From the NCBI GenBank assembly GCA_964645605.1, contig CAZYCE010000003.1:57135-121134 (forward strand): a stretch of DNA of 64,000 nt, written 5' to 3'. This document shows positions 40,491 to 58,894 of the stretch, piece by piece; the stretch's first letter is position 1; the number at the start of each line of letters is the position of its first letter. The translations under genes and the position numbers were made by a program. Under the pieces are notes generated by a model that had not been told where the DNA came from, did not search any database, and saw only the letters and a program-made list of their open reading frames with translations. The DNA is from an uncultured Gammaproteobacteria bacterium (lineage in GTDB: Bacteria; Patescibacteriota; Microgenomatia; UBA8517).

Positions 40491-40603
40491 ATCATTCTCG
40501 AGTTGGGCTGGAACTTGCTCGATTTTGTAGACAGAAGTCAAAAGACCCATTAAAATACTTAGCATTGCTAATATTTAGCATATTTAATATATAATAGGGA
40601 TTT

Positions 40604-41098: not shown

Positions 41099-41120
41099 AA
41101 GGACCTTTATTTTATATAAA

Positions 41121-41828
41121 ATGAGCAAATCTCCTTCCAAACAAAAAGATCTACCCTACCATATTTGTTTTATTGTTGATGGTAATCGCCGTTGGGCAAA
41201 AGAAAAAGGCTTACCCGCATTTATGGGTCATAAAAAGGGTGCGGAGCGAATAGAGGAAATTGTCAAATACGCTCAAGACTTGGGTATAAAAATTGTTACT
41301 GTTTATGCTTTTTCGACCGAGAATTGGAAAAGATCTGAAAAAGAAGTTTCCTATTTAATGAACCTTTTTGAAAATTTTGCCATCAATAAAATGAAAGACG
41401 CGGAAAAACTGGGAATGAAAATAAGAGTTTTGGGCAATCTTCAGGATCTTCCTCTATCTTTACAAAAAGTTTTGAAAAAGGGAATGAAACTGACCGAGAA
41501 CAATCAAAAAATGATTGTCAATGCCGCCTTAAGTTACGGAGGTAGAGACGAAATTACCAGAACCTTCCGTAAATTGACAGTTTTAGGAGTTAAACCTGAA
41601 GAAATCACTGAAGATTTGATAAATCAAAACTTAGATACAGCCGGTTTACCCGATCCGGATTTTATTATCAGAACATCAGGTGAGCAGAGGCTTTCTAATT
41701 TTCTTCCCTGGCAAGCCACTTATTCAGAACTATATTTTCCTAGAGTCTATTGGCCGGACTTTGACAAAAGGCAGCTTGACATTGCCATTTTAGAATTTCA
41801 AATGCGCCAAAGGAGGTTGGGAAAATAA
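41121..41828 (+). CDS. uppS: undecaprenyl-diphosphate synthase (cis-prenyltransferase)
   Basis: HICFIVDGNRRWA, AFSTENWKR and RTSGEQRLSNFLPWQ signature blocks. Confidence 0.85.
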   Translation: MSKSPSKQKDLPYHICFIVDGNRRWAKEKGLPAFMGHKKGAERIEEIVKYAQDLGIKIVTVYAFSTENWKRSEKEVSYLMNLFENFAINKMKDAEKLGMKIRVLGNLQDLPLSLQKVLKKGMKLTENNQKMIVNAALSYGGRDEITRTFRKLTVLGVKPEEITEDLINQNLDTAGLPDPDFIIRTSGEQRLSNFLPWQATYSELYFPRVYWPDFDKRQLDIAILEFQMRQRRLGK

Positions 41829-43282: not shown

Positions 43283-43455
43283 TGAAATTACCCTTTGTGC
43301 GATTTCTCTGGACCGCGAGCGCATCGTCCGAACGTTTTGGTTTCAAAACAGCCATTTTGAAGGTGTTATTGGGCTATTCCAGGCTTCACGGTCACACGGG
43401 CGCACTGCTTGGCTGAGTATCATGTCTAGACAGGTTTAGACTCATAAGTAGGAAA
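43283..43455. repeat. intergenic repeat family copy (G)
   Basis: ccctttgtgcgattt...cattttgaaggtgttattgggctatt...cacggtcacacgggcgcactgcttggctgagtatcatgtctagac...ctcataagtagg. Confidence 0.5.
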
Positions 43456-43460
43456 GTGTA

Positions 43461-43667
43461 TTGTGTAATTACAGGTATACATTACAACTTCTTCTATTTC
43501 TTTTGCAACAAGACATCAATCCCAACACAAAGGTTTGGGATATTAGAGACTATGCGAGATATGTTCTAACAAACAAAAACATTGAAGAAAAACGGGAGTT
43601 ATTTAGCCTTTTCAATTATCCATTATTTATCCAAGACAAAAACGTTACTTCACTTCGAGCACATTGA
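43461..43667 (+). pseudogene. remnant homologous to the C-terminal tail of the recombinase fragment at 58.2-58.5 kb
   Basis: DINPNTKVWDIRDYARYVLTNKNIEEKREL parallels NINPDKIPFDFREYAKYTLTRGTTPDKREI at 58206..58508. Confidence 0.4.
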
Positions 43668-43682
43668 CAACAACCCACTGAA

Positions 43683-44501
43683 ATGGTTTGTTTGTTGATA
43701 TATAATTATTTTATAAATAAGACAATAAAAGGTAATCCTGTTCTGGCACAGATAAATACAATATCTGCATACTTGTGGTTTGTTTCAGTTATTGTTTTTT
43801 CTGTCTCCATCTTCACCCAAACTTTTGGATGGTTCGGACATGAATCTTGTACATGGTTACCAGATTGTGGTGACAATAAATTGCTGGTTTGGACATTAAT
43901 TTCTCTTGGTTTGGGAATTTTATCATTTATTGTTATGTTAATTTCTGGCATTTTAAGAAAAGTGCTTAAGGGGCAAAAATGGAACGCACCGTTTAGAATC
44001 GGTGCTGGGAAGATTTCTATTCTAGCAATTTTTGTCTTAATGATCTCGCTTGCTTATTTTGTGATTATGGGTAGGATGGTGCAGGGTACTGATTCTACGT
44101 TAGATGGTCAACACATTTGGGATGCCGTCAACGTCTACAGGAAAGAAAATGGTGTTTCTGAATTACAGCAAAACGAACTTCTTTGCAATAATCTTGTAGC
44201 AAGATGGAAGCAATTTAACGAAGAAAACAATCATGATGGTTTTGAGCCCTGGTTAAAAGAATATGTCTATCCATTCGATACTTCTCACAAGTTAAAATCA
44301 GTTGCAGAGGACTACGTGGGAGGTATTAAAACAGCTGCTGGAGCCATAGTTAAATGGAAAGAATCACCAGGACATAACCTTTCACTTCTTGATCCAAAGT
44401 ACAATATTGGTTGTGCATATGCAGGAACAATACCCGGGACGGGAGGAATAGACACTGATTACGGTACTGCGATCATTATTTTAGGCGAACTTCAAAAATA
44501 G
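43683..44501 (+). CDS. membrane protein with C-terminal CAP/SCP (YkwD-like) domain
   Basis: Four TM segments. The extracellular part carries VNVYRKENGV...WKESPGHNLSLLDPKYNIGCAYAG (CAP motifs). Confidence 0.5.
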   Translation: MVCLLIYNYFINKTIKGNPVLAQINTISAYLWFVSVIVFSVSIFTQTFGWFGHESCTWLPDCGDNKLLVWTLISLGLGILSFIVMLISGILRKVLKGQKWNAPFRIGAGKISILAIFVLMISLAYFVIMGRMVQGTDSTLDGQHIWDAVNVYRKENGVSELQQNELLCNNLVARWKQFNEENNHDGFEPWLKEYVYPFDTSHKLKSVAEDYVGGIKTAAGAIVKWKESPGHNLSLLDPKYNIGCAYAGTIPGTGGIDTDYGTAIIILGELQK

Positions 44502-44544
44502 ATATTTATAAAGGACTGCTCATGGTTTTTGGAGAAAGGATCCG

Positions 44545-44700
44545 GATAGTGGTTTTTCGAGGGTAAACAACCGTTATAATCCTCGCTTTTGAAAATAGCA
44601 CTATTGGAGGAAAATAAGGGCTTTTCGAGAGGACGGGGTCACTGAGGCTGTAAATGCTTGCTGCTCGTGAGTGATTCTCACTACGGCTTCAACATTCAGG
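44545..44700. repeat. intergenic repeat family copy (B), ~90% identical to the core of copy A
   Basis: gtttttcgagggtaaacaaccgttataatcctcgcttttgaaaatagcactattggaggaaaataagggcttttcgagaggacggggtcactgaggctgtaaatgcttgctg. Confidence 0.6.
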
Positions 44701-45801
44701 CGCCCACTTGACTTTAATCGTATCATTTTGATACGATTACTGTATATGAATGATACGAAACTTAACTCTCGCCAAAAACAAATCCTTGAGCTCATAGCAA
44801 AATCGAATGGTCTTTCCCGATTGCAAATTAAGGGAAAACTAGCTGACCAATTTCAGGCTTCTATTCCTACTATCGCACGGGATCTGACTTATTTGTTAAA
44901 AAACAAATTTATTATAGTCCATGGTGACGGTAGAAATACCAACTATTCTGGAATCAATGTTTCCCCTCTCCTTAAATATTTTGATATTGACCAATATTTT
45001 TCCGTTGGGCCAGATCAAAGAACTAATGTCAAGAAAAATTTTGATTTTGGCATATTTAATAATCTTACAAAGCTGTTTACTCCAGTAGAATTATCTGGTC
45101 TGGCTCGGATTTATAAGAATTTTGACACAGAAAGTAAAATTGCCAATAAAGATGTCTATTTAAAAGAAGTTGAGAGATTTGTTATCGAACTTTCTTGGAA
45201 ATCCTCAAAGATTGAGGGCAACACCTATTCTCTTCTGGATACGGAAACTTTAATCAAACAAGAGGTGGAAGCAGAAGGACACTCCAGAGAAGAAGCTGTT
45301 ATGATTTTGAATCACAAAAGTGCCTTTGAAATCATATTGGAAAATCGGAAAGACTACCGAGAAATATCTTTCTCTCAAATCACTCAACTTCACAATATTT
45401 TAGTAAAAGGTCTGAATGTTACGACTGGAATTAGAAAACAAGCGGTGGGGATTACAGGGACAGTTTATCAACCATTAAGTAACGAGTGGCAAATTCAGAA
45501 AGCTATGGACAAGTTTGTTATTGTTTTAAATCATTCTACCCATCCACTAGAAAAAGCTCTAATAACAATTGCTATGATTTCGTATATTCAGCCATTTACT
45601 GACGGAAATAAGAGAACAGCCAGAATGCTGGCTAACGCGGTTTTGCTGGCTAATGATTATTACCCACTTTCCTACAGGAGTGTGGATGAAACCTTTTATA
45701 AAAAGGCTCTGGTTTTATTTTACGAGCAGAACAGTCTCTATTATCTAAAGCAAATTATTTTGGACCAGTATAAATTTGCGTTAAACACTTATTTCAAGTA
45801 G
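44671..45801 (+). CDS. Fic-family protein (AMPylase-type) with N-terminal HTH
   Basis: Fic motif IQPFTDGNKRTARML (HxFx[DE]GNGRxxR, with H replaced by Q). Confidence 0.75.
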   Translation: MILTTASTFRRPLDFNRIILIRLLYMNDTKLNSRQKQILELIAKSNGLSRLQIKGKLADQFQASIPTIARDLTYLLKNKFIIVHGDGRNTNYSGINVSPLLKYFDIDQYFSVGPDQRTNVKKNFDFGIFNNLTKLFTPVELSGLARIYKNFDTESKIANKDVYLKEVERFVIELSWKSSKIEGNTYSLLDTETLIKQEVEAEGHSREEAVMILNHKSAFEIILENRKDYREISFSQITQLHNILVKGLNVTTGIRKQAVGITGTVYQPLSNEWQIQKAMDKFVIVLNHSTHPLEKALITIAMISYIQPFTDGNKRTARMLANAVLLANDYYPLSYRSVDETFYKKALVLFYEQNSLYYLKQIILDQYKFALNTYFK

Positions 45802-46524
45802 TTTGATAAGTTTTTCCTCCCAGCCGAAACATGTTTTCCTCCCTTTCAAATTCCTAAATTCCTTTTTGCATTCGGGATCAATTTTTGCAAATTCGATGAG
45901 CACATCTATCACCTCTTCAATAAACCCCCCAACAGTTCCTTCAGAGTCGTCAACTCCACTCTGAAGTTTTTTATCCAGACGGAGTAAGAGCTCAATTATT
46001 AAATCTGTAGTTTGTACACTAATCGGCAATTTACTAATTAGTGTTGAAAGTCTATTAACACCTTCGGTTAAAGAATTCTGATATGCAAACCAAGTTTTTG
46101 AAGGCCCCGAATAATATTTAATAAAACTGATAGCGTAGGTTATTTCTTTCTTGATATTTTTTAACTCGTTGTTGGTTAATTGGCCAATATTTCCGCTGGC
46201 ACTTGGTTTAGTAATCTGAATCTTATCACCTGTCTTTATCTTCTTTCCCCTTAGAATTCCGTAAATTGCTGTAGCGACCATATGTTTACAAAGGGTGTTG
46301 TTTTGGCCCAAATAGCACTCACACATTCCTGAATCATATTTTTGAGTGGATACTGATACGCGGTAAGGTTGACTACCCAAGACCGTTGATATAAAAGTAT
46401 AACCGTTATCTTTGAACTCGGTCACCTTCCCACCTTCATACAAAATTATGGCTTTTTGAAAAGTGTCTTCGTCAACTCCGTACTTAATCTTTTCTAAATC
46501 GTATTTGGGAATTGTGAGAACCAT
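45781..46524 (-). CDS. SWIM-zinc-finger protein
   Basis: CECYLGQNNTLCKH (CxCx(n)CxH). Convergent with fic and overlapping it by 21 nt. Confidence 0.45.
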   Translation of the reverse strand: MVLTIPKYDLEKIKYGVDEDTFQKAIILYEGGKVTEFKDNGYTFISTVLGSQPYRVSVSTQKYDSGMCECYLGQNNTLCKHMVATAIYGILRGKKIKTGDKIQITKPSASGNIGQLTNNELKNIKKEITYAISFIKYYSGPSKTWFAYQNSLTEGVNRLSTLISKLPISVQTTDLIIELLLRLDKKLQSGVDDSEGTVGGFIEEVIDVLIEFAKIDPECKKEFRNLKGRKTCFGWEEKLIKLLEISV

Positions 46525-46599
46525 TTGATATCAACTTGTATTATATTCCAATAAGGATAAAAAAGACTGTCATACGGTCTTTATCCTGACAACGAGCGT

Positions 46600-46720
46600 A
46601 CGGTACGAGAATTTGGTATTTAAAATAGCACTTTTGAAGGTATTGTTGGGCTTATTTAGGCATTACGGTCACTGGGGTGCCCTGTTTGGCTGAGCATCTC
46701 GGTCTAGGACCATTCGAGCC
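46600..46720. repeat. intergenic repeat family copy (F)
   Basis: tagcacttttgaaggtattgttgggcttatttaggcattacggtcactggggtgccctgtttggctgagcatctcggtctaggaccattcgagcctataa. Confidence 0.55.
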
Positions 46721-46746
46721 TATAAACAATTATTTAAAAATTATTC

Positions 46747-47121
46747 TTACAACGAGTTTATATAGGTGGCAGCCACCAATAAAAATTCGGGATGTTCCTC
46801 GGTGACAAGATGGTCTCCAGGCAAATAAGGTTTTATACCATGCCCGACCATCGTCTTAGACAAAACCTCCTTAAGTACGTCTGCCTGGTTTTCACTTAAA
46901 TCTACATCTTTATTACATAATTCGAGTAATCTTAACTTCTCTCTGGCAGAAAGTTCCTGTAATTGTTCTGATACCTGTGTGTCAGTTATGGTTCCATCTG
47001 GGGGGATATTTCTAAACTTAATACCATCGGTAAATTTTCCCAACAGAGGTTTTTCGTTTTTTACTTGTGCATACTTCTCTGCAAAAGAAGTGTTTGCTAA
47101 TGCTTTTTCTTCGTTATCCAT
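46747..47121 (-). CDS. hypothetical protein
   Basis: ORF only. Confidence 0.3.
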   Translation of the reverse strand: MDNEEKALANTSFAEKYAQVKNEKPLLGKFTDGIKFRNIPPDGTITDTQVSEQLQELSAREKLRLLELCNKDVDLSENQADVLKEVLSKTMVGHGIKPYLPGDHLVTEEHPEFLLVAATYINSL

Positions 47122-47179
47122 TTTATCTCACCCCCTTTCCTTAAAAATTTCATCTTGGTTCGTAAATTGAGACTGAGCT

Positions 47180-47290
47180 CGTTTTATTTGCTTGGCTGAG
47201 CAGTGTGGTCTCGGACCATTCAGACCCATAACTGATTACTCCAAGTGTATCACACTCGAGGCTAAATGAGACAGATGAGACACTATAAAA
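47180..47290. repeat. intergenic repeat family copy (E)
   Basis: tgcttggctgagcagtgtggtctcggaccattcagacccataactg...ctcgaggctaaatgagacagatgagaca. Confidence 0.5.
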
Positions 47291-47413
47291 AGGGAATGTC
47301 TTAAATAACAGACCTGATGTAGTTTGATATACTAACTAATTCGGGTATGTTTCATTACAATTTAAGTACAGCAATTAATAGCAAGAATTAGAAAACGTGA
47401 GTAAAATATAGCT

Positions 47414-47704
47414 ATGACAGTTGAGTTTGCTGATAAATATAGGCAAAAGCAAATAGAAGAATACAGCCTGATTTTTAAAACTTACCCGGAGCTTAAAAAA
47501 ACTGCTCAAAAATACTGGGCTCAAGTTCAGGGTATGAATTCAAGACAGGAAAGAAAATTATTTGATGGCGTAGTTTTGGAAATCTCTAACCAATTATTAG
47601 ATAACACAGTATTCCTGGCAGCCATGGATCGGGAGGGAAAAGATCCTATAGAATGTGCTATAATTGAAAGCTTTTTTATGATAGACATTGTCCCAGATGT
47701 CTAG
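47414..47704 (+). CDS. hypothetical protein
   Basis: ORF only. Confidence 0.3.
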   Translation: MTVEFADKYRQKQIEEYSLIFKTYPELKKTAQKYWAQVQGMNSRQERKLFDGVVLEISNQLLDNTVFLAAMDREGKDPIECAIIESFFMIDIVPDV

Positions 47705-47719
47705 TTTAAAGCTAAATAT

Positions 47720-49486
47720 ATGACTGAACAGAAAGGAGATGTGCTAAGATTTTCTAAAGATATGTCGGAGGCAAGATCTGCCAAACCGCTTGTCGTACAA
47801 AATATTCACAAGGAGTATGGGGATCGTGTGGTTTTGGATAATGTAAGTATTTCAATAAACACAGGTGACAGGATTGCACTTGTGGGTAAAAATGGATCTG
47901 GTAAATCAACGCTTATGAGAATAGTAGCGGGTTTGGAAACTTCAGATAAGGGATCTGTAATAAATCCAGGATTGAGAGTTGGGTTTCTCGGCCAGGATTT
48001 TACTTTAGATAACGATAAATCCGTTTACAAAGTTGCGACTGAAGGCGTTGCAGAGTTTACGGACCTTCTACAGAAATTCGAACAAATGTCAGAAAATTAT
48101 CAATCTAATAATTCTGAGTTTGTAGAGAATTACACCAGAATCCTAGATATCCTTCAAAGAAATGATGCTTTTAAAATTCCGGACAGAGTTAGTACTGTAC
48201 TTAAAAACTTGGGAATTGATCACGATCTGGAATCTAAGGTATCAACACTAAGCGGAGGTCAAATGGTGCGGCTTGCACTTGCTAGGATATTAATTTCGAA
48301 ACCCGATATACTCTTTTTGGATGAACCAACCAACCATCTAGATCTTCATGCAAATTTATGGCTAAGAAACTTTCTAAATAGTTGGGAAGGTGGTTTTGTT
48401 GTTGTTTCTCACGATAGAGATTTCCTTAACGAAGTGACGAAATCAACATGGGAATTGGATGAGGGTCACATTGAGCAATTTGGTGGTAACTATAATTTCT
48501 ATAAAGAACAAAAAGGTCTAAAGGAATCAGCGCAGGAAAGAGAGGTTGTTCGGCTGGGTAAGGAAGTTAGGAAAGCAAAGAAGAAAATAGAAAAAGAAAA
48601 AGAACGGGCTGCCCATAGTGCTAGACGTGATTTAAGCAAAAATCCTGAAGACTTGGACCGATTTAGAGCACATTATTTCAAAGAAAGAGCCGAAAAATCA
48701 GCTGGCAAAAATAAGGGTGTTTCTGAAGATAAACACTCAGAACTTTCTGAGCAACTAAGACAATCGAAAAGAAAAATACCTCAAAGAATATCTCCTAATA
48801 TGACAGAGTCAGAAACCCACAAAGGTAAACGTCTTCTTTCTGCAAAAGATATTTCCTGCTCATACGGCGATAGTGTTGTCATAGAACAGGCATCCATTAA
48901 CGTCTCTTTCGGTGATCGTATTGCTCTTTTTGGAAATAATGGAGCCGGTAAATCGACTTTAATTCAAGGTTTGATTGGTTCTGATTCTGTACATGTTGAC
49001 GGTGATTTAGAATCTTCTCCTAATATAAACATCCAGTATATGGATCAAAACTATCGCTTTGTCGATAGAAACAGATCTGTCTTGGAAAATATGCAAAGCG
49101 CCGCACCGTCTACTAATGTTGATGATTTGAGAGTACACCTGGCGCGTTTTTTATTTAGGCAAGGAAACGACGTTACAAAAATGGCTAAAGTTTTAAGCGG
49201 GGGCGAAATCGCACGCTTGGCGCTTGCAATGATCTCCTTACAACCAATTGATTTATTGATTTTGGATGAACCGACAAACAATCTCGATGTGTCGTCCATT
49301 GAAGAGGTTGAGTCTGTCTTATCAAACTTTAAAGGGGCAATTCTGGTAGTTTCGCACGACATTACATTTCTTAAAAATATAGGAATAAATGAATCGTATG
49401 TCATAGCAGATGGATCTTTAAAACATCTAATTTCCAACCCGGACAACACAGATTCTTTCAAAAAAGAACTTCTTTCCAATCTCTGA
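47720..49486 (+). CDS. ABC-F family ATPase (two ABC domains, long charged linker)
   Basis: Two Walker A motifs (GKNGSGKST, GNNGAGKST), two LSGG signatures, and a basic linker about 100 aa long. Confidence 0.85.
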   Translation: MTEQKGDVLRFSKDMSEARSAKPLVVQNIHKEYGDRVVLDNVSISINTGDRIALVGKNGSGKSTLMRIVAGLETSDKGSVINPGLRVGFLGQDFTLDNDKSVYKVATEGVAEFTDLLQKFEQMSENYQSNNSEFVENYTRILDILQRNDAFKIPDRVSTVLKNLGIDHDLESKVSTLSGGQMVRLALARILISKPDILFLDEPTNHLDLHANLWLRNFLNSWEGGFVVVSHDRDFLNEVTKSTWELDEGHIEQFGGNYNFYKEQKGLKESAQEREVVRLGKEVRKAKKKIEKEKERAAHSARRDLSKNPEDLDRFRAHYFKERAEKSAGKNKGVSEDKHSELSEQLRQSKRKIPQRISPNMTESETHKGKRLLSAKDISCSYGDSVVIEQASINVSFGDRIALFGNNGAGKSTLIQGLIGSDSVHVDGDLESSPNINIQYMDQNYRFVDRNRSVLENMQSAAPSTNVDDLRVHLARFLFRQGNDVTKMAKVLSGGEIARLALAMISLQPIDLLILDEPTNNLDVSSIEEVESVLSNFKGAILVVSHDITFLKNIGINESYVIADGSLKHLISNPDNTDSFKKELLSNL

Positions 49487-49491
49487 TAAAT

Positions 49492-50346
49492 TTATAATTC
49501 AGGGGCAATCTTAGTAAGCAGATTGGTTAATTCTTTATCTATTTCAGATATTCTCTTTAGAACAAAATCTTTCTCACCTTTGTCTTTAAACTGGTTATTT
49601 GAAAGAATTAAGCCAATAGCTTTAAAAATCTCCAGATATGTCCCAATTTTTCCGGTTGGGCGTTCTTTGCGACGCCAATAGATCTCGCTTACTTGTTTTT
49701 GGTGAATTCTATAGTCAGTAAGAATCTTGTCTAAAAAGTAAACGTCATATTTAGCCGCAATTTTTATGTACATATTAAAATCAAATGTATTTTTTGCAAA
49801 TTCCGCTTCATATAGACCTACTTTATCGTAGACGCTTTTGTTACATATCATTGTCGATGAATTTGTTAGGCAACAACCATATTTGATTGTATAGAACAAA
49901 TAATCTAACCCCGAAAGATATCCCGAAGGGGTAAAATCATAACCCCACCTCATTAGATAATTACCCTTCACATCCATTTTATTGGCATGAGCAAAAACAA
50001 AACCAAGTTTTGGATATTTGTTGTAGATCTTCATTGTTTCCGAAATAAAATTAGAATGTAAAATGTCATCGTCACCAAGAATGACAATGTACTTGCCTTT
50101 GGCAAGCTGTATGCTTCTGTTCCAGCTTCCCATCATTCCTATATTTATTTCGTTTTTTGTATATACAATTCTGGAATCTTTGTAGGATTTAACCACAGAC
50201 TCGGTGTTGTCAGTTGAACCACCGTCAATTATTAAGACTTCTATATTGATATATTTTTGGACAAGACAACTTTCAATGGCAGTTTTTAGGAATTCTGCAC
50301 GGTTATATGTAGGAATAGCGATTGTAACTAGATGTTGTTTATTCAT
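49492..50346 (-). CDS. family-2 glycosyltransferase
   Basis: IAIPTYNRAEFL...IIDGGSTDNT and the DDD DxD motif. Confidence 0.8.
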   Translation of the reverse strand: MNKQHLVTIAIPTYNRAEFLKTAIESCLVQKYINIEVLIIDGGSTDNTESVVKSYKDSRIVYTKNEINIGMMGSWNRSIQLAKGKYIVILGDDDILHSNFISETMKIYNKYPKLGFVFAHANKMDVKGNYLMRWGYDFTPSGYLSGLDYLFYTIKYGCCLTNSSTMICNKSVYDKVGLYEAEFAKNTFDFNMYIKIAAKYDVYFLDKILTDYRIHQKQVSEIYWRRKERPTGKIGTYLEIFKAIGLILSNNQFKDKGEKDFVLKRISEIDKELTNLLTKIAPEL

Positions 50347-51562
50347 AATGTTTTATAATCTGACGAAGCATATTCCTCGGACTGTTTACTCTCTGATAAT
50401 TTATTGATTGATTCCCCGATTCATTGCTGCTTTTCATTTCCGATTTTCCTTTAATTATAATCTCCAATTCTTTACGTAAATTATCTATTGTTTGCTTCGG
50501 TTCATTAAGTTTGTAGTCAAAAATATGACCTGCATTAAATCTCCGTGATTCGTCAGCCATCCAAGTTCCAGACGACACTACACAAATCTGATTATACATT
50601 CTAGCTATAATATAAATTTCCGAGACTCTTTTATCATAACTTTGCGGATGGTATGGCATTACGACCACGTCCGAGGTTGCAACTATTCTTTGAAAATTCA
50701 GAGGATCAATAGCTGATTCTATAAATTCCACTCTACTATCAGACTCCAATTCTTGCCGGACTCTTTTGAATTGAACTGATTCCTGGACGTCGTAACCCCT
50801 GCCGTTATAATCTTGAATAATAATCCTTTCTCCAGCTGAAGGCGTATCTTTTACAGCTTCGAGAAATAACAAAAGACCCTTCTCATATCTGCCATCGCCC
50901 AAAAAGGAAATAGTAAATCCAACACTTTCAGGTTTGTCATCTGTCTTTAAGTCTTTGTGAAATTCGATAGGCAAAGGGAGCATGCCAATATTCATTGGTG
51001 AAAACGAATTTAAAAGCTGGTTTAGTTTTCGGCTTCGCGTTGTCCAAATAGAAACAACATTTTTAAAATCCACGGCTTCAATAAACGATTCGGCTAAGAG
51101 TTCTTTGTTTGTCAAAAAGTAACTATCCTCAAGAGTTTGTCTAAATGTTAACGCCGGTGGAAAAAATTGATGAATTTGAAATGCAAACTTAGGTTGTTTA
51201 TCCTTATGTTTTCCAAGGAATGTTTTAACGCCCAAAATCTCATTCGAGTAGGCAGTTGGGATTACCACAAGATCGCTTGTGCCTAATTGTAATTTTTCAT
51301 GAACTTTCTCCATATCCTCATGGAAGGTCGATCCCTTGTCATCTAAATTCTGAAAACATGTGTTTGTGATAACCGGATGAACCTCTCCAAGCAATCTTTG
51401 TACAGAGCTGTCTGTGTCTCGATTTGTTACGATCTCCAAGTCAACTTTACTCGTGTCAGTTACAGAACTTTTTATGGAACAAGCCCCTTCAATAGGATGA
51501 CCAAAATTCGTCTTAAGATTGGGGTCTATCCAAACAATTCTCTCTATTTCAGAATTAACCAT
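50339..51562 (-). CDS. hypothetical protein (possibly a GT-B glycosyltransferase)
   Basis: ORF in a glycan operon. No confident motif. Confidence 0.3.
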   Translation of the reverse strand: MVNSEIERIVWIDPNLKTNFGHPIEGACSIKSSVTDTSKVDLEIVTNRDTDSSVQRLLGEVHPVITNTCFQNLDDKGSTFHEDMEKVHEKLQLGTSDLVVIPTAYSNEILGVKTFLGKHKDKQPKFAFQIHQFFPPALTFRQTLEDSYFLTNKELLAESFIEAVDFKNVVSIWTTRSRKLNQLLNSFSPMNIGMLPLPIEFHKDLKTDDKPESVGFTISFLGDGRYEKGLLLFLEAVKDTPSAGERIIIQDYNGRGYDVQESVQFKRVRQELESDSRVEFIESAIDPLNFQRIVATSDVVVMPYHPQSYDKRVSEIYIIARMYNQICVVSSGTWMADESRRFNAGHIFDYKLNEPKQTIDNLRKELEIIIKGKSEMKSSNESGNQSINYQRVNSPRNMLRQIIKHYE

Positions 51563-52352
51563 TTTGTTTATTAATTAACTCCTTTCTAATCTTATCCGCA
51601 CATTGTGTGAAATCTTTACTCAAAATTCCCCTGTTTGTTTCCGCTAAGTTATAAAGAGTCGCAACTTGTAAATCTTCAGAATTATTTACATTTATAAAAT
51701 CAGGTATTTCTATAAGGGATGTTTTGTAACCTAGCTGTCTGCAATATTCAAAAAAATCTTCGATTTCACGCTTATCAAATTCCAGAAACCTTTCCAGATA
51801 TTGCTTTATCTCGGCTTTAAAAAGTGCGGTGCCTGACCATTTATATCCATCTTTGTTTTTCGGAATAGCCTTTTTAATTACTGACGTAACTTCTGATCCA
51901 TCCGTAAAAACAATACCCCCGAGAGACAGATCTTTAGAATGAAAAGCCTTTGCGGCTGCGAGATATATTTGCTTCCCGTTTATCTCTACATCAAATTTGT
52001 CAAAAGGGTTATCTCGAAAGTAAATATCCCCAAGAGTCAGAAGTACAATGGTATCAGGGTCAATATTTTTTAACAGATTTCTAAGTGTTGACAGCGGCCC
52101 TTTCTCATCGTTGGTTTTGTATACAACTTCGACACGGGAGTAATCCTCCAGCGATCTTTTTATTTGGTTATAAAATAATTCATTAGTTGCGATCGTTATA
52201 TTGTTTGACCCATTTTGGATTGACTGTTGAACTTGTCTATGAAGCAAAGTGGTATTCCCCAGGGGCATAAGAGCCTTCGGAACACCTTTTGATAGATATC
52301 CCAAACGGCTTGCCTTACCCCCAGCCAGAATAATATGTAATTTGTTTGTCAT
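51555..52352 (-). CDS. sugar-phosphate nucleotidyltransferase
   Basis: IILAGGKASRLG nucleotide-binding signature. Confidence 0.65.
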   Translation of the reverse strand: MTNKLHIILAGGKASRLGYLSKGVPKALMPLGNTTLLHRQVQQSIQNGSNNITIATNELFYNQIKRSLEDYSRVEVVYKTNDEKGPLSTLRNLLKNIDPDTIVLLTLGDIYFRDNPFDKFDVEINGKQIYLAAAKAFHSKDLSLGGIVFTDGSEVTSVIKKAIPKNKDGYKWSGTALFKAEIKQYLERFLEFDKREIEDFFEYCRQLGYKTSLIEIPDFINVNNSEDLQVATLYNLAETNRGILSKDFTQCADKIRKELINKQNG

Positions 52353-52354
52353 AG

Positions 52355-53146
52355 TTAAGTTAATTTCTGATCAAATATTACTTTTGCCTCTTTTTCCCAG
52401 CTTATTAGTGGAGCCAGCCATGGCAAATGAACGTGAGTGGCAAGCGATGGAATTGGTCCGACAAGTACTCTTTTATTTAACGTACCCTCTGCGTATTTAC
52501 CAAGTCCTTGTAAATCCCGAAACAACTCTCTGTCTTCCGGCCTTCCTTTGCTGTTCTCTTTGTATCTTTCAAAATATTTGATATCTTCTGCAAGAGTTCT
52601 GCTTGTTGTCGCAAAAGTCATACAGGTAGATTCCTGCGTTCTCCAATGCCTTTCGTTGGTAATATATATGACATTGTGCCAATGGGGAAGGTCGGGCCCT
52701 TTTACATAGTCAGGCTGATAACGAACAGGGTGGTCATACGGAGTTGAATAGTGAACCGGTAATTGTTTAAGAGAATGTTGTAAACCCAAAAGTGCGGGAG
52801 TAAGCCATAGATAATCGTCTTCTGCAAAAACGACTATTTTGTTTCCAGATATTGCAGAAGCTTTTCGAATAATATTAATGCTAGATTCAACATTTCCAAG
52901 TGGTTTTTGTTCAATAATCAAACCCCGTGGTTCAACCATCTGTTTTACTTTCTTCGACCATTCATCATGGGGTTTTAGATATCCATCAACAAAAACTGTC
53001 ATTTCCGATTCAGTTTCACTTTTAAGTTGATCAAACGATAACAAAAAACTTTTAAGACACAATTCCTTAGAATACCAGGTAGGTCTTGGGGCATTATTCT
53101 CTCCAGGGCAGGTTCTATAAAAAATAAATGTGGGTGATTCTATCAT
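52355..53146 (-). CDS. hypothetical protein, possible glycosyltransferase (EDD DxD-like)
   Basis: VVFAEDDYLW. Lies in the glycan operon. Confidence 0.3.
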   Translation of the reverse strand: MIESPTFIFYRTCPGENNAPRPTWYSKELCLKSFLLSFDQLKSETESEMTVFVDGYLKPHDEWSKKVKQMVEPRGLIIEQKPLGNVESSINIIRKASAISGNKIVVFAEDDYLWLTPALLGLQHSLKQLPVHYSTPYDHPVRYQPDYVKGPDLPHWHNVIYITNERHWRTQESTCMTFATTSRTLAEDIKYFERYKENSKGRPEDRELFRDLQGLGKYAEGTLNKRVLVGPIPSLATHVHLPWLAPLISWEKEAKVIFDQKLT

Positions 53147-53922
53147 TTGTTTGAAAAAACTCCGGTTTTATCGGCAATTAGTATTCTGGTTGCACTGATC
53201 ATTTGAGATAATATCTTTTTCAATGGCCTTCTTTCCTTCCAAATGTGTGATTCCAATGTGATTGGAACTATATTGCCATATTCACTTGCCAACCTAATTG
53301 TTATCAAATCTAAGCCCCATTTAAGATCTTTTTTTGAAACATATCGTTCTAGTGTTGGTAGCATGGCCTCAACAACCTCTCTCCTATAAACCTGTAATCC
53401 TGGGCTGTGTTGGCTCATTGGAAAGCCAAGCAGCGTATTACCTTCGATATTACCCATGATATTGTGGAATGCCGAATCTATGAAGCCATTCGACTCGAGA
53501 CTACGCCTATGTTCAACAAAGACACCTGTGTTTTTACTATCCTGTAAAATATCCACGGCTTTGCTAACTGCAGACATGGGATATTCACCGTCAGCGTCGG
53601 CTCGAATAATTATCTCTGCCTTGGTTTCCAGAGCTTTTCTGTAACCATCAACTAGAGATCGCGCCAGTCCAAGGTTTGATTCGTGCCTGAGGATTGTAAT
53701 GGGAGGTTCGTTCGATCCCAAGATCAGTTTTGAACTGCCGTCGTCAACTGCAATAACAGAATACTGACTACCCTCAAAAAGTAATCTAATATCTGCTACC
53801 TGGCTATCTATGGGGTGGTTGTAGGAGGGAATTACAAAGACCAATTCAGGCACAATCATACTCGCCTCGGTTCTGCTGAACCCTTCTGTAATTTGGCCAT
53901 GATAAATAGAGTCAATTTCCAT
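53143..53922 (-). CDS. family-2 glycosyltransferase
   Basis: VIPSYNH...VIAVDDGSS and ADADGE. Confidence 0.7.
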   Translation of the reverse strand: MEIDSIYHGQITEGFSRTEASMIVPELVFVIPSYNHPIDSQVADIRLLFEGSQYSVIAVDDGSSKLILGSNEPPITILRHESNLGLARSLVDGYRKALETKAEIIIRADADGEYPMSAVSKAVDILQDSKNTGVFVEHRRSLESNGFIDSAFHNIMGNIEGNTLLGFPMSQHSPGLQVYRREVVEAMLPTLERYVSKKDLKWGLDLITIRLASEYGNIVPITLESHIWKERRPLKKILSQMISATRILIADKTGVFSNK

Positions 53923-53983
53923 GCGAAGCAGTATATACTATAAGATATCAGAAGTCAAGCTCAGAATAGCCTTGATGATTAAA

Positions 53984-54736
53984 CTAATCTTCACCTAGAG
54001 CTTGTTTTATCTTTTGGGTAATTATCGCTCTATCACCCTCGTCGTTCCTGATCTGGAAATAGTTCTTTATGTTTTGGTCAGTCATAAAAGAGTTAGTGAC
54101 AGTAGAAAAGGAGTCTTTAGTAAAAAAATAATAATCAACCATAACCTGGTCAATATGTTTAACTTTGAAGGGGTACTTTAGTGCAATTCTCGCAAACAGA
54201 TCCCAATCTTCCAAAATTCCAAGACTCTCATCGAATTTGCCGATTTCATCAAATAGAGTTTTATTTATAAGCACCGAGTTGATATCTATGAAATTTGTAT
54301 AAGTTAGCTTGACCGGATTGTACTCTACATTTCTAACCTTCCTGCCAATTATTTGTCGAGACTCTTTATTTCCTGACACAAGAAACATATTTTCGCTGCA
54401 ATACCCCATCAAATATGGTTTGCAAACTTCTTGAATCATCGTTTCCAAAAAACTTGGATGCCAGTAATTGTCTGTATCTAAAAATGCAATAAATTTACCC
54501 TTGGCTAATGATAAGCCCTTATTCCTGGCTGCAGAAGCTCCTTTGTGATCTATGTGTTCATAAACAAGTCGTTTGTCTTTAATCTTTGAAAGCGTCTCTT
54601 TTGTGTTGTCAGACGATCCGTCGTCAACAATTATCAATTCAAAATCTTCATAGTTTTGGTTTAATACGCTGTTCACTGCCGTTCTAATCGTTTGAGACCG
54701 ATTATAGCTAGGCATAACAACGCTTACATTAGGCAT
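53984..54736 (-). CDS. family-2 glycosyltransferase
   Basis: VVMPSYNRSQTI...IIVDDGSSDNT and the LDTDN DxD motif. Confidence 0.8.
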   Translation of the reverse strand: MPNVSVVMPSYNRSQTIRTAVNSVLNQNYEDFELIIVDDGSSDNTKETLSKIKDKRLVYEHIDHKGASAARNKGLSLAKGKFIAFLDTDNYWHPSFLETMIQEVCKPYLMGYCSENMFLVSGNKESRQIIGRKVRNVEYNPVKLTYTNFIDINSVLINKTLFDEIGKFDESLGILEDWDLFARIALKYPFKVKHIDQVMVDYYFFTKDSFSTVTNSFMTDQNIKNYFQIRNDEGDRAIITQKIKQALGED

Positions 54737-54759
54737 AATCTATTTTAACATACATCGTC

Positions 54760-54790
54760 ACAAATGGTTGTGATCCGCATACTACCCCTT
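54760..54790. repeat. intergenic repeat family fragment (K): atactaccccttgtgcgacg, 20/20 identical to the 5' end of copy A
   Basis: Exact 20-mer shared with 40171-40190. Confidence 0.5.
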
Positions 54791-54964
54791 GTGCGACGCT
54801 GAATTAGGTCAGTTTCTTTTTGTCTTCATAGAGTTTCATCCGATGTTTTTTACTGTATTCCAAAGCAGGATTGGTGAATCCCTTCTTGGCAATAAATTTA
54901 ACAACACCTTTTCTATTACTCACCATTTCTTATCACCACCTTATTATATTTATCCTAAGGATAT

Positions 54965-56671
54965 TTATCTTTTAGTCCAAAAACTTTTCATAAACTCGTT
55001 GTAATCCAAAGAATCTTTACTCATTTCGCTTTTCTTCATAATCATTGGGTAATCCTTATAAAAATGCTTCAAATATGTTGTGACCAGTGGATAATATTTC
55101 TCATAACTGGCACCAATTTGAGGCACGAAATATTCACCGTCATATCGGTATATTCCCCAAACAACTCTGTTGCCCCTTCCCCCTTGTTCTCTTTTCGCGA
55201 TTCTGGTCATCTTATTAATCACGTCTTGTCCTAAGTCTTTAAATTCTTCATTAATCACTTTCTCGATATCGGGAGTAATTGGTCCGTCCTTCGGATATTC
55301 ATCAACCATCTCTGCTACCTCTAAATATCCGTCATTATCAAAATCGGCTGCAGTTAAACTTCCGACCTCACCCGACCAAAACAAACAATCGTATGCGCTT
55401 TTTACATCCCGAGTCAGACAAATTGGCAATATTCCATACCCTCCGGTCTTTAGTTCAAATAGTCCGAAGAACATTGTTTGGGATGAATGAGGGCCAACTA
55501 CAAACTCATAACTTACGAATTGCTTCCCGTCTTTTTTCATACCTACAAAAGCTTTTGCGCTGCCGGAGAGAGGCTGCTCAATCGGTATACTATCGGGGAG
55601 TCTTCCGATTTCATTGCCTTTTTCATCATAAGCAACAAGGGAGATATCCGGAAACTCACTTGTTTCGCTCTGAGAATAGGTAAGACGAAGGGTTTCTTCT
55701 TTTCCGTCACCATTCAAATCAACCCTTTTGTCTTCTTTGCCTGAAGTATTGTTTTTTGAAAAAACATTTTTAGGATATTTTTTATCAAATTTGGAAAGGA
55801 TTACGCTTAAGGGGTCATAGGCAAGATTGTTGACATCATAATAATCTAAGGCCCCGTAGATTAATTCATCGGCCTGGTTATATAAATCACTCCATTCATT
55901 TTGTTTGACAGTCGTAATTTTATTGTAAGAATCATAAAAAAGTGTCAACAGGTCTCCATGTTTGTATTTTGCAATTATCTCTCCCGTTTTTTTATTCACT
56001 TCCGGGGCTGAATAATTATTCTCGGTAGCATCACTTAGAAGGTTATAAATGTCTATCTTGGTGTTTATATCAGCCAAGACCGCATTGTAATAATCGCTCG
56101 TCATAAATCCGTTATCAAAGAACTTCTTTAAATTGTCTCTGGTATCTCCCAAGTCCTTGACCTTGGTATAAAGCTCATCAAGAGTGACCCCTTTAGTATC
56201 CAACGCCTGACTGAATTGATCACTTTTAGTTAAAATAACATTCATTCCTCCTTCATATTCTTTTAATGAGTTAAATTTCCTTAAAGAAGAGTAATACTTA
56301 TCAAAAGCTTCCTTCTTTAAAGCCAGGAACTCCTTGTATTTTTTTGGTAAAAGGAACTTAAACTTTAACTGTTTATTTAGAATCGATTCATGTTCATTGA
56401 TAAGAAGATCTACCTTGTTCAGATCAGCCGCAATATCAATCGAGAGATTCTCAACTTCCGGACCTGTTTTTTGTCCGCCCTCTCTTCCGCTTCTTTGTTC
56501 AATATGATCATTGGCTACCTGTCTAGCTTCCTGAATTGAAGAAAAAATTTCTCTGCCTTTATACTCAAGTTGGTTAAAATAAAATCTGGGAAATAGGAAC
56601 AAAAATAAAGCAAGTAGAAGAAATACAGGAACAATAATGAGAAGTTTCAGTTTCATACTTCTTATTAACAT
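54965..56671 (-). CDS. membrane-anchored extracytoplasmic protein, unknown function
   Basis: N-terminal TM (LKLLIIVPVFLLLALFLFLF) and a large hydrophilic remainder. Confidence 0.35.
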   Translation of the reverse strand: MLIRSMKLKLLIIVPVFLLLALFLFLFPRFYFNQLEYKGREIFSSIQEARQVANDHIEQRSGREGGQKTGPEVENLSIDIAADLNKVDLLINEHESILNKQLKFKFLLPKKYKEFLALKKEAFDKYYSSLRKFNSLKEYEGGMNVILTKSDQFSQALDTKGVTLDELYTKVKDLGDTRDNLKKFFDNGFMTSDYYNAVLADINTKIDIYNLLSDATENNYSAPEVNKKTGEIIAKYKHGDLLTLFYDSYNKITTVKQNEWSDLYNQADELIYGALDYYDVNNLAYDPLSVILSKFDKKYPKNVFSKNNTSGKEDKRVDLNGDGKEETLRLTYSQSETSEFPDISLVAYDEKGNEIGRLPDSIPIEQPLSGSAKAFVGMKKDGKQFVSYEFVVGPHSSQTMFFGLFELKTGGYGILPICLTRDVKSAYDCLFWSGEVGSLTAADFDNDGYLEVAEMVDEYPKDGPITPDIEKVINEEFKDLGQDVINKMTRIAKREQGGRGNRVVWGIYRYDGEYFVPQIGASYEKYYPLVTTYLKHFYKDYPMIMKKSEMSKDSLDYNEFMKSFWTKR

Positions 56672-56865
56672 TAATTCAGATATTTATCAATTTTATCAAT
56701 ATTAGAATCACTTATTTTTTAAATCAACTAACATATGTGAATCATCACCAAGTTTTACAAGAAGATAATATTTACCTTTTATATAAACATTCATTTGACC
56801 GGTACCCCTTAAACTACACATAGTTTCTGTATAATCAGAAGCTTGTATTAAGGGGGTGAAAAAGG

Positions 56866-57120
56866 TTGAAATCTAAAATAGCACCGGAAGTTAAATCAGA
56901 AGTTTTAGGGAAAATTAAAGGTGGAGAAAGTGTTGCTTCATTAGCTGAAAAGTTTGGTATCTCAGTCAAAACAATATATGGCTGGTTAAGATGGGAAACT
57001 ACAAACAAGGTAAGTTGGATGGAATATTCAAGGCTAAAGAAGGAGAATCAAACATTAAAAGAGATTGTTGGAGTTCTTACACTGGAGCTTCAGAAGTCAA
57101 AAAAAAAGACAATTAATTGA
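56866..57120 (+). CDS. IS3 transposase OrfA (HTH)
   Basis: SVASLAEKFGISVKTIYGWLR HTH and a leucine-zipper-like C-terminus. Confidence 0.8.
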   Translation: MKSKIAPEVKSEVLGKIKGGESVASLAEKFGISVKTIYGWLRWETTNKVSWMEYSRLKKENQTLKEIVGVLTLELQKSKKKTIN

Positions 57121-57952
57121 GATTATTCAAATTAAGGTTAAAACTGCCACCAAGTCTCTTTTATCAGTTTTATTTGGTCTAACTAGAAAAAGTTTATATT
57201 GGCAATCAAGTTCAGAAGCCAAAGATGAACTTCTTAAAAACCAAATACTTGACTGTCTGGCAGTTAATCCCAGTTATGGCCACAGGAGGCTTGCTTTGGC
57301 CTTGGGGGTTGGCAAGAAAAGAGTGAGAAGGGTTATGAAGCTGTATGGAATCAAGCCTTACAAAAGGAAAGCCAGGTGGGCAAAGAAGAGAGACAAAGGC
57401 AAGCCTGACAGTGGATTTCCAAACCTAATCAAAGGTTCCTGCCCAATCAGGCCAAAAATTGTCTATGTTGATGACTTCACAAGACTAAGTTGGAATGGAA
57501 AGATAATTTATCTAGCTACTTTTATGGACCTTTTTACAAGGGAAATAGTGGGATGGAGTATTTCAACCAGGCACACCCATGAACTTATCCAAAATGCTTT
57601 TAAAGAAGTCTTAACTTATTTTGGCAAACCCCAAATAATCCACACTGACCAAGGAAGTGAATACACATCAAAGGAATATACAAAATTAATGACTAGCCTC
57701 AATGTCAAAATCAGTATGAGCAAGAAAGGCAGTCCTTGGGAAAATGGTTTCCAAGAATCTTTCTATGATAACTTTAAAACTGACCTGGGTTTGGAATTTG
57801 AAAGGTTTGAAACAATTGGAGAATTTGTTGAAGCAATTCACAAAACAATTAATTATTACAACACACAAAGGATTCACTTATCCTTAAAAACTTCACCCAC
57901 CAAATTCAGACAAAATTTCGTTTCAAAAACTCTCAGAAAGAGTGTGTATTAA
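57065..57952 (+). CDS. IS3 transposase OrfB (DDE integrase core, rve)
   Basis: YVDDFT...HTDQGSEYTS...ENGFQESFY (D, D, E triad contexts). Confidence 0.8.
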   Translation: MLEFLHWSFRSQKKRQLIEIIQIKVKTATKSLLSVLFGLTRKSLYWQSSSEAKDELLKNQILDCLAVNPSYGHRRLALALGVGKKRVRRVMKLYGIKPYKRKARWAKKRDKGKPDSGFPNLIKGSCPIRPKIVYVDDFTRLSWNGKIIYLATFMDLFTREIVGWSISTRHTHELIQNAFKEVLTYFGKPQIIHTDQGSEYTSKEYTKLMTSLNVKISMSKKGSPWENGFQESFYDNFKTDLGLEFERFETIGEFVEAIHKTINYYNTQRIHLSLKTSPTKFRQNFVSKTLRKSVY

Positions 57953-57969
57953 AAGGGGTACTTGACACC

Positions 57970-58507
57970 CGCCACTAACCAGTAAAGAAATATTTGATAA
58001 AGTACAGAGGAATTTAGTAATACCTTTTCAAAAAGCCAAATGGGGCAGCAAAACATTTACATTTAAAGACCTTGCTGTCTGTGGAAGCTGTGGAGCCGTA
58101 TTCGTAGCAGAAGATAAATATGGAAAAAGTAAATTCAGAGAGCCAAAATATCACGTCTACAACCACTGCACCAGAAGAAGAGATCCAAACTGTCCTGAAC
58201 CGTATGTGACTGAAGAAAAGCTCGTTAAAGAGCTGGTAAGGTATATTAACTTCACAACCGTAGCCCATCCACAGATGATTCACTATACAGAAAAGATCAA
58301 GTTTGGCATGGAACAGTACAAAAAACTGAGAAACGAGATATTTATCCAACAGAACATTAATCCAGATAAAATACCGTTTGATTTTAGAGAATATGCAAAA
58401 TACACCCTTACCCGAGGAACAACACCGGATAAAAGAGAAATCATTAACGCCTTGGGAGGCATTATTTACATCCACAATCAAATGGTTTGTTCAGCTCCGT
58501 CAAAATA
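57970..58507 (+). pseudogene. C-terminal remnant of a large serine recombinase (zinc beta-ribbon + tail), truncated at the IS3 right end
   Basis: The frame reads ...LAVCGSCGAVFVAEDKYGKSKFREPKYHVYNHCTRRRDPNCPEPYVTEEKLVKELV... (CxxC...C...C ribbon). The ORF 58206..58508 is its tail. No N-terminal catalytic domain is present. Confidence 0.45.
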
Positions 58508-58689
58508 AACACAACCTTCCTCCACGGTTCGAATCCAAATTGACGGGTTAACATGGATTAGAACACGTTTAGCTCAACACTAAAAAATCGAGCGTAGTTA
58601 TAGGTCCGATACATTTGACTAAAAATCAAGCTTTTAGAGGGCATTATTGGAATGAATAAACATCTCGATCAGAGGCTATAGAGTATTTA

Positions 58690-58760
58690 GCTGTGGGTCA
58701 GGGATTTGAACCCCGATAACATCCTCCAGAGGGATGTGTCCTACCGTTAGACGAACCCAC
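58690..58760 (-). tRNA. tRNA-Gln (anticodon CTG)
   Basis: Minus-strand cloverleaf. Acceptor TGTGGGT/ACCCACA, D-stem GTCT/GGAC, anticodon stem CATCC/GGATG with loop CTCTGGA, T-arm CGGGG-TTCAAAT-CCCTG. CCA is not encoded. Confidence 0.7.
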
Positions 58761-58894
58761 AATGTAAGTATGCGTATTCTAACATTTTGAAGCTTATTGT
58801 GGAATTGCTGGTGGTAGGAGGGCTAGTTATTTTTAAGATTTCTAAAAATAGCTTGTCGCTACCACCTATTCAATTGTTTGAAAGAAATAAATAA

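Follow-up and report, generated by a model that had tools for sequence, protein, structure and literature searches.

The region around a tRNA-Gln gene in the window, by which we mean the whole 64,000-nt stretch analysed here (contig CAZYCE010000003.1 of assembly GCA_964645605.1, positions 57,135 to 121,134 of the forward strand), is probably a decayed landing zone of temperate phages or related elements that integrated by large serine recombinase (LSR) into a Microgenomates genome (candidate phyla radiation, CPR; Levybacteria-like). It contains the C-terminal remnants of two LSR genes, here called LSR-A and LSR-B, an insertion sequence of the IS3 family and several copies of a mosaic repeat. 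An earlier note, made from the sequence alone, had proposed an island built by repeated recombinase-mediated insertions that have since decayed. That proposal is supported by the presence of two LSR lineages, by an intact phage counterpart of one of them and by the differences between relatives at this locus. The features on which this reading leans are as follows.

57966-58508, plus strand: LSR-A remnant, the last 180 codons and the stop codon (TAA) of a phage-type LSR
58509-58689, no strand assigned: conserved spacer between the LSR-A stop codon and tRNA-Gln, an inverted repeat and then the mosaic 'unit' (alignments, nhmmer)
58690-58761, minus strand: intact tRNA-Gln, anticodon CUG (ARAGORN; Rfam tRNA, 57.4 bits)
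43497-43667, plus strand: LSR-B remnant, the 3′-terminal ~55 codons of an LSR from a second lineage, within the open reading frame (ORF) 43461-43667
56796-57967, plus strand: IS3-family insertion sequence of 1172 bp, with orfA, orfB, inverted repeats and rve
56866-57120: IS3 orfA (HTH_28)
57065-57952: IS3 orfB (rve domain)

Translation of 57966-58508 gives 180 stop-free codons followed by TAA. The earlier note had placed this remnant in a 537-nt frame at 57970-58507; the remnant is real and its coordinates had to be corrected, as frame 1 from 57970 is riddled with stop codons. What LSR-A retains is the end of the recombinase domain, a four-cysteine zinc ribbon (CGSCG...HCTRRRDPNC; Pfam Zn_ribbon_recom, PF13408, 27.3 bits against a cutoff of 25.3) and ~100 aa of helical tail; nothing is left of the catalytic domain. 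The fragment aligned with positions 259-352 of the XisF recombinase model of NCBIfam and matched the PHROG family phrog_95, 'integrase' (E 2e-11). The resolvase-type catalytic domain (PF00239), which carries the serine nucleophile, was absent from both window remnants in Pfam searches, and LSR-A gave no Pfam match to the Recombinase domain (PF07508), only residues past the end of that domain being left. The description of a zinc ribbon and an LSR-type tail with no catalytic N-terminal domain was therefore accurate. With that domain missing from both, LSR-A and LSR-B are, on sequence grounds, pseudogene fragments of the LSR family and not working recombinases. The AlphaFold model of LSR-A was of mediocre confidence (mean predicted local distance difference test score 65), with confident helices at 83-100, 109-128 and 140-173, and a Foldseek search of the PDB with this mediocre-confidence model gave no match at E < 1.

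An intact counterpart of LSR-A was found on a 31-kb Joint Genome Institute (JGI) metagenome contig (locus L018). Its 447-codon open frame holds an LSR of ~436 aa with Resolvase (73 bits), Recombinase (48 bits) and Zn_ribbon_recom (32 bits) domains. LSR-A aligns with the C-terminal 180 aa of this protein, gap-free, at 96% amino acid identity (85% at the nucleotide level), and its truncation point falls at about residue 256 of the L018 LSR. A second intact LSR, in locus L006, has a Resolvase domain of 69 bits, and both proteins carry the motif YARKSS/T...SIDSQ. The intact genes with this tail thus carry Resolvase, Recombinase and Zn_ribbon domains and belong to no other family, which bears out the assignment of the tail to LSRs. 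Upstream of the L018 gene (9236-10543) lie genes for a ParB-N/DNA methyltransferase and for both a small and a large terminase (the latter phrog_38, 278 bits), and downstream of it the same conserved spacer and then tRNA-Gln. The methylase and both terminase genes directly upstream identify the L018 LSR as the integrase of a prophage, or of a fragment of one, at whose end it lies. The recombinase behind LSR-A is accordingly a phage integrase, of whose gene LSR-A represents the 3′ 40%.

Full-length relatives came from scans of genome and metagenome contigs. At least 10 further intact LSRs of 436-465 aa, 46-59% identical to LSR-A in the tail, were found in metagenome-assembled genomes labelled Levybacteria, with more distant ones in Andersenbacteria and Minisyncoccia. 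On IMG/VR viral contigs a full-length alignment scan identified 67 relatives at 41-63% identity; the tail-only alignment gave no matches in the viral-contig scan. A protein search with the 180-aa fragment of LSR-A returned only 12 relatives, nearly all of them short. The best sequence matches in the PDB were YokA (9dxh, E 1.4e-8), TP901-1 (3bvp) and A118 (4kis). In the limited collection of literature searched, we found no description of this LSR family or of tRNA-targeting serine integrases in CPR.

The tRNA-Gln gene, reported before as lying some 180 nt downstream of the larger remnant, lies on the minus strand, 181 nt past the LSR-A stop codon (ARAGORN, Rfam), and its 3′ end faces LSR-A. 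This orientation recurs throughout the family. We compared 40 loci, comprising the window and those genome, metagenome and viral loci with a tRNA within ~6 kb downstream of an LSR or remnant, some of which are near-duplicates. In 39/40 the nearest downstream tRNA is encoded on the strand opposite to the LSR and turns its 3′ end toward it, the exception being L023. In Levybacteria-type loci this is nearly always tRNA-Gln (CUG or UUG) and once tRNA-Asn, and in viral loci it is tRNA-Gln, Ser, Asn, Asp, Glu, Trp or Arg. The LSR stop codon of L024-L028 overlaps the 3′ end of tRNA-Gln, and junction comparisons put the boundary near the tRNA-Gln 3′ end (TTRGCTG). Taken together, these data are strong contextual evidence that the LSR family integrates at tRNA 3′ ends, with putative attachment (att) sites there, and the tRNA-Gln of the window is probably the attachment-site gene and no bystander. 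Serine integrases usually land within protein genes. In the literature, tRNA genes as targets are described as typical of tyrosine integrases (PMC8092301, PMC4701971). Two tandem tRNA-Gln (CUG) genes lie downstream of the LSR in L024, L026 and L027 (L027 10543-10860), the first overlapping the LSR stop codon; in L024 the first of the two copies is without its 5′ part.

LSR-B lies in a 68-codon ORF that was correctly recognised from the start as homologous to the LSR-A tail (35% identity over 51 aa, pairwise E 1e-11) and as directly following a copy of the mosaic repeat (43300-43467). The first ~12 codons of the ORF are unrelated to LSRs, DNA homology to locus L014 beginning at ~43497, and the remnant has no zinc ribbon, the tail alone remaining. 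A nucleotide-level alignment of the two remnants, which had been put forward as a check, is only weak; their kinship is clear in protein. LSR-B is 75% identical over 55 aa (E 7e-32) to a truncated Amesbacteria LSR in L014, compared with 35% to LSR-A, which argues that LSR-B is a separate acquisition from a different LSR lineage and not a duplication of LSR-A. The protein matches of LSR-B far exceed what chance would give. In both loci the remnant is followed by one unrelated gene and then by the repeat unit, the gene being a CAP-domain gene in the window and a GH10-like gene in L014.

The missing upstream part of LSR-A had been ascribed to an IS3 element that interrupted or replaced it. The element itself is well supported by NCBIfam transpos_IS3 (NF033516, 212.5 bits against a cutoff of 160) and Pfam rve (PF00665, 89.3 bits), and an A9G slippery run, the frameshift site, occupies 57099-57108 inside the orfA/orfB overlap. 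Its terminal inverted repeats are imperfect, of ~25 bp with TG...CA ends (TGACCGGTACCCC.../TGTCAAGTACCCC..., 19/25 matching). The left end at 56796 reads TGACCGGTACCCCTTAAACTACACA and the reverse complement of 57943-57967 reads TGTCAAGTACCCCTTTTAATACACA, with identity at 19/25 positions; the right terminus at 57967 reads ...GGGGTACTTGACA. Homology between the DNA of the window and that of L018 begins at 57965-57966, which is the final CA of the right inverted repeat. No target-site duplication of 3-5 bp was found, the left flank ending in CATT and the right one beginning with CCCG (triplets ATT versus CCC). To the left of the element lie the 124 nt (56672-56795) upstream of an unrelated FG-GAP gene on the minus strand (54965-56671), and no recombinase sequence was found there. 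Of the two alternatives these observations favour replacement: the absence of a target duplication and the unrelated left flank suggest that the upstream part of the gene was deleted and not merely interrupted. The missing duplication is accordingly taken as a sign of deletion or rearrangement after insertion and not as evidence against the IS3 identity. In this sequence of events the element would first have inserted in or near the integrase gene, and a subsequent IS-associated deletion, or recombination between two IS copies, would have removed the 5′ 60% of the gene together with upstream DNA. The only other IS3 copy found lies on the source contig of the window itself (L033). No strain variant lacking the element was found, the neighbouring protein being encoded only by that source contig.

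The 181-nt spacer between LSR-A and tRNA-Gln is homologous to the mosaic repeat of the window, and this homology ties the repeat to the recombinase remnants, as the earlier note had supposed. Within the spacer, an inverted repeat (GTTCGAATC at 58528-58536, GATTAGAAC at 58556-58564) is followed by an nhmmer match to the unit at 58592-58724, which reaches into the tRNA 3′ end. In related loci the unit profile (~150 nt core) finds one copy per locus, between the LSR or remnant and the tRNA (a single unit beside the tRNA in L001-L004, L006, L007, L009-L013, L015, L018, L020-L022 and L035). The window, in contrast, contains at least 7 diverged mosaic copies. Unit matches begin at 36094, 40263, 43300, 44548, 46580 and 58592, with partial ones at 17717 and 47189. 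Besides the spacer, the copies are:

43300-43467, plus strand: mosaic copy, unit (43300-43441) and start of the P′ module (43398-43467), fused to the LSR-B tail (nhmmer)
44495-44664, plus strand: mosaic copy, left part and unit, after the CAP-domain gene 43683-44501 (Pfam CAP)
40210-40492, plus strand: full mosaic copy, left part, unit and P′, after an AAA_14/DUF4143 ATPase gene
46580-46742, plus strand: mosaic copy, unit and hairpin part of P′
47183-47310, plus strand: P′ module, with a hairpin, the direct repeat ATGAGACAgATGAGACAC and a rightward extended -10-like TTTGATATACT
36094-36230, plus strand: mosaic unit copy
34638-34759, plus strand: P′ module copy
17723-17853, plus strand: leftmost copy of the P′ module, immediately past a P-type ATPase gene (15186-17627)

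P′ is made up of three parts: a short hairpin, the direct repeat ATGAGACAnATGAGACAC and, directed into the genes that follow, an extended -10-like TTTGATATAyT. In the internal copies of the window the unit is followed by P′ in place of the tRNA, and the point at which unit switches to P′ (TTRGCTG) corresponds to the last few tRNA bases in the tRNA-proximal copies. Tandem accretion of this kind is directly visible in L014, where an intact 507-aa LSR of another lineage, abutting tRNA-Gln, stands between the tRNA and an old remnant with one gene and a unit, and is also seen in L008 (between tandem LSR genes), L019 and L023, in which, as in L014, P′ follows the unit in place of the tRNA. L019 has a 0.9-kb insert with a partial tRNA-Gln fragment between unit and tRNA. 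The unit copies of the window share 39-67% identity, except for one pair at 92% (the 40210-40492 copy and the 44.5-kb copy), and the tRNA-proximal unit is closest to copies in other genomes (72-74%). On these figures the copies do not appear to be recent internal duplicates. Moreover, unit subtype co-varies with LSR subtype, and the unit of L012 lies beside tRNA-Asn.

Several further observations concern the repeat. The possibility that the unit is an RNA gene was rejected, as RNAalifold on 20 copies gave zero consensus pairs, and Rfam at its gathering threshold reported nothing in the window but two tRNAs and a SAM (S-adenosylmethionine) riboswitch. MAFFT alignment of P′ and of the left part of the spacer with tRNA-Gln genes was ambiguous (TTCGAA is palindromic), showing a resemblance only, with no covariance-model support. 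A promoter/operator-like module, ATGAGACAnATGAGACAC followed by TTTGATATAyT, lies at 47259-47330, 34705-34760 and 17801-17870 of the window and also at L001 3030-3100, L006 15620-15700, L008 10790-10860 and L014 6290-6370; it is common to Levybacteria-type and Amesbacteria loci and precedes unrelated genes, in L006 beside tRNA-Glu and away from any LSR. The tandem intact LSRs of L008 (9215-12230; 442 and 435 aa) are parted by unit and P′ at 10544-10840, the second starting just past the promoter-like part of P′. In L019 (1700-2700) the insert starts with a P′-like hairpin and ends with TGGCCGCGGGACAGGGATTC, ~70 nt before the complete tRNA. Lastly, GGTTCGAATCC occupies 38346-38375 of the window, after the stop codon of a racemase gene (37644-38345), with a weak P′ match at 38524-38587; its T-loop-like motif recurs after the LSR-A stop codon (58527-58537).

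These findings suggest a history in which elements integrated at the tRNA-Gln 3′ end, each with its integrase gene at the element end and pointing toward the tRNA. Later elements arriving at the same tRNA would have displaced older ones outward, and each older element would have kept its right-end module (the unit), joined to the left-end module of the next (P′, which includes a promoter-like part). Most of each element would then have been stripped away by deletions, among them the one associated with IS3, and the tails beside the tRNA or the junction modules would have outlasted the rest. Tails beside the tRNA may persist because longer deletions would take the tRNA. We infer a composite island from ~17.7 kb (the leftmost P′) to 58.7 kb, in which the repeats would be junction modules of successive elements. 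Within it, the P′ at 47183-47310 is proposed to be the left end of the last element, and the copy at 44495-44664 the right end of the LSR-B element, paralleling the order of remnant, one gene and unit in L014. The P′ at 17723-17853 is a possible left boundary of the island; a P-type ATPase gene directly precedes the LSR in several relatives.

A number of observations weigh against this history. The genes between the mosaic copies are partly housekeeping-looking (undecaprenyl-diphosphate synthase, MarR, glycosyltransferases, racemase, ABC-F) and include no phage structural genes, and the 'elements' are not recognisable prophages. Nothing tRNA-like was detected in the mosaic copies (Rfam at E up to 10, 34-48 kb), and integrating again into an attR-type site would depart from standard LSR chemistry. 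The unit of L026 and L027 lies between two tRNA-Gln copies and not beside the LSR, so that the unit may be either element-borne or chromosomal. Neither a pre-IS3 variant of the strain nor an empty site in it or in a close relative was found, the sole contig with the flanking gene of the window being its own source. A search of the flanks (blastn-short) recovered no tRNA-derived direct repeat at distal element ends, and the unit boundary shares only ~7 nt (TTGGCTG) with the tRNA end. The absence of a long tRNA-derived repeat is to be expected, because a serine recombinase needs no long sequence identity between its sites. In favour of the history, relatives differ greatly at this locus, carrying an intact LSR with terminase (L018), a truncated LSR or one displaced by a newer LSR (L014).

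An alternative accepts the LSR remnants as real and takes the mosaic repeats to be intergenic regulatory modules, made up of a terminator-like hairpin, protein-binding motifs, an operator-like direct repeat and a promoter, that were spread or kept by homologous recombination, with one lying at tRNA-Gln by chance. It would accommodate the housekeeping-type genes between the copies, the copies with no tRNA-like signal, the conserved direct repeat and -10-like sequence of P′ aimed at downstream genes, and the one P′ copy beside tRNA-Glu in L006, away from any LSR. However, chance placement sits badly with a unit that is single and always lies between an LSR or remnant and a tRNA 3′ end in the 20-kb loci of more than 20 relatives, with exceptional loci that show a second LSR or remnant, and with two window copies attached to LSR tails. 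The co-variation of unit and LSR subtypes and the unit beside tRNA-Asn in L012 point the same way, and we regard regulatory modules as an unlikely explanation. Still harder to credit is that the tails are products of site-specific exchange, with attP inside the 3′ part of the integrase gene, and not of decay. There is precedent in the rumA-targeting serine integrases of Streptococcus integrative and conjugative elements (ICEs), whose attP lies in the 3′ part of the integrase gene so that integration separates the tail (PMC4701971), and the overlap of LSR stop codon and tRNA end in L024-L028 implies an att site at or near the gene 3′ end. Such exchange would not explain breakpoints that differ between loci over ~190 codons or a window breakpoint that coincides with the IS3 terminus, and the intact genes of L018 and L006 carry the same tail contiguously by the tRNA. 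We consider it extremely improbable.

Decay by repeated truncation, in contrast, is what the relatives display. Nearly all LSR-A relatives at 70-94% identity are 5′-truncated, at differing points: the tails of L001-L004, L019 and L023 were truncated independently, and breakpoints are scattered over the ~190 codons (at about residues 215, 256, 290, 313, 325, 385, 395 and 405). The remnants of L003 and L004 are fused to the ParB-methylase gene that is upstream in L018. Three apparently independent truncations (L002/L020-22, L019 and P0005) lie near the first cysteine pair of the ribbon (...VCGSCG), which may be a deletion hotspot or a coincidence. In the protein library, most of the 196 representatives matching the tail profile at E <= 1e-10 are 57-330 aa long, and many of the matches start at a conserved Met/Val, at profile positions ~100-103 and 118; among the tail-profile matches listed, only a small fraction are full-length (425-447 aa).

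In every truncated copy found, the frame stays open as far as the native stop codon, and a comparison of the window, L018 and L019 gave proportions of synonymous and nonsynonymous differences (pS and pN) of 0.41-0.45 and ~0.02 respectively. This raises the possibility that the ~100-aa tail, with or without the zinc ribbon, is kept under selection as a small stand-alone protein, perhaps interfering with the integration or excision of related phages through its ribbon or helices. A GTG at 58206 opens a 100-aa tail ORF, called also in other metagenomes (P0009, P0010), and many diverged tail-only ORFs of 57-110 aa occur in the 1.84-billion-protein library. However, a low ratio of nonsynonymous to synonymous substitution is equally expected from young truncations of a phage gene under selection, copies with a shared breakpoint are nearly identical, so that no divergence after truncation is measurable, and protein-space searches favour open frames. 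Moreover, the window copy is altered at conserved ribbon residues (YYHC to YNHC and RKxK to GKSK), and two relatives are disrupted, L004 by a frameshift just upstream and P0006 by an internal deletion. A promoter scan around LSR-A gave 8 promoter-like sequences, compared with a mean of 6.4 in shuffled sequence, and no convincing promoter for the tail; terminator-like sequences numbered 4 (1.8 in shuffled sequence). Retention of the tail as a protein thus seems quite improbable, and on the simplest reading each remnant would have been truncated only recently, from a gene shaped by selection in phages. Were the tail retained, tail-only ORFs in CPR metagenomes would be domesticated fragments and not debris, and the tail protein might, for example, keep related phages from integrating at the tRNA-Gln site or excising from it.

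The intact relatives share their domain order (resolvase catalytic, recombinase, zinc ribbon, helical C-terminal part) and their position at a prophage end with the phage serine integrases SPbeta SprA/YokA, A118/LI integrase, TP901-1 and Bxb1. Unlike these, they are short (436-465 aa), so far confined to CPR genomes and viral contigs, and consistently found beside, and aimed at, a tRNA 3′ end, and the window copies are dead fragments. The region also resembles tRNA islands formed by tandem accretion, classically by tyrosine integrases, in having an integrase at the island edge that faces the tRNA 3′ end, successive remnants with repeated junctions, and decay away from the tRNA; it differs in its serine enzyme and in a junction that is a diverged module of 150-300 nt, with no short exact copy of the tRNA 3′ end. 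With the rumA-targeting integrases (PMC4701971) the family would have in common an att site at or overlapping the integrase 3′ end (cf. L024-L028), but its probable target is a tRNA and not a protein gene, and its variable breakpoints are not those of exchange products. The IS3 element is typical of its family in its orfA/orfB arrangement with an A-run frameshift site, its DDE (rve) domain, its TG...CA repeats and its position at a deletion junction; unlike a simple insertion it has no 3-5 bp target duplication, which points to secondary rearrangement, and only one copy was seen.

The features of the window itself are ordinary decay, with pseudogene pieces of enzymes of a known class next to a hotspot of a familiar kind, and the wreck of integrated phages or elements accounts for the IS3 element, the two small ORFs and the intergenic repeats. 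The unusual part is the family-level attachment of a serine integrase to tRNA genes in CPR phages. CPR bacteria are uncultured and their temperate phages poorly known, and the present data supply an integrase family, a probable attachment site and intact candidates (L018). If true, tRNA-targeting serine integrases would extend the known target range of enzymes used in genome engineering, and the junction modules offer a handle for delimiting elements in CPR genomes.

Two integron-like interpretations were also considered and rejected. A capture platform with a resident LSR does not agree with the ties of the LSR to terminase and methylase genes and its frequency on viral contigs, and for a cassette array there is no tyrosine recombinase and the repeats have no consensus fold.

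Other features of the window and of L014 were recorded in passing. Between two of the mosaic copies, positions 40604-43271 hold genes for MarR, undecaprenyl-diphosphate synthase (Prenyltransf, 275 bits) and a methyltransferase/GT2 fusion, a housekeeping-type operon in the putative island. The SAM riboswitch (RF00162; 34370-34478, minus strand; 45.3 bits against a gathering threshold of 44.4) lies upstream of the minus-strand ORF 33867-34289 and in the same intergenic region as the P′ copy at 34638-34759. In L014 (13607-15395), the last codons of the intact 507-aa LSR read through the tRNA-Gln on the opposite strand, and ~200 nt upstream of the LSR gene 17 nt of the tRNA-end region recur in inverted orientation; this could be a minimal element or an invertible segment. 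Finally, three direct repeats spaced ~990 nt apart (families D3 and D4) lie at 500-2700 of the window, within the minus-strand ORFs 37-1968 and 1952-3793, which are paralogous and have a homologue in L014.

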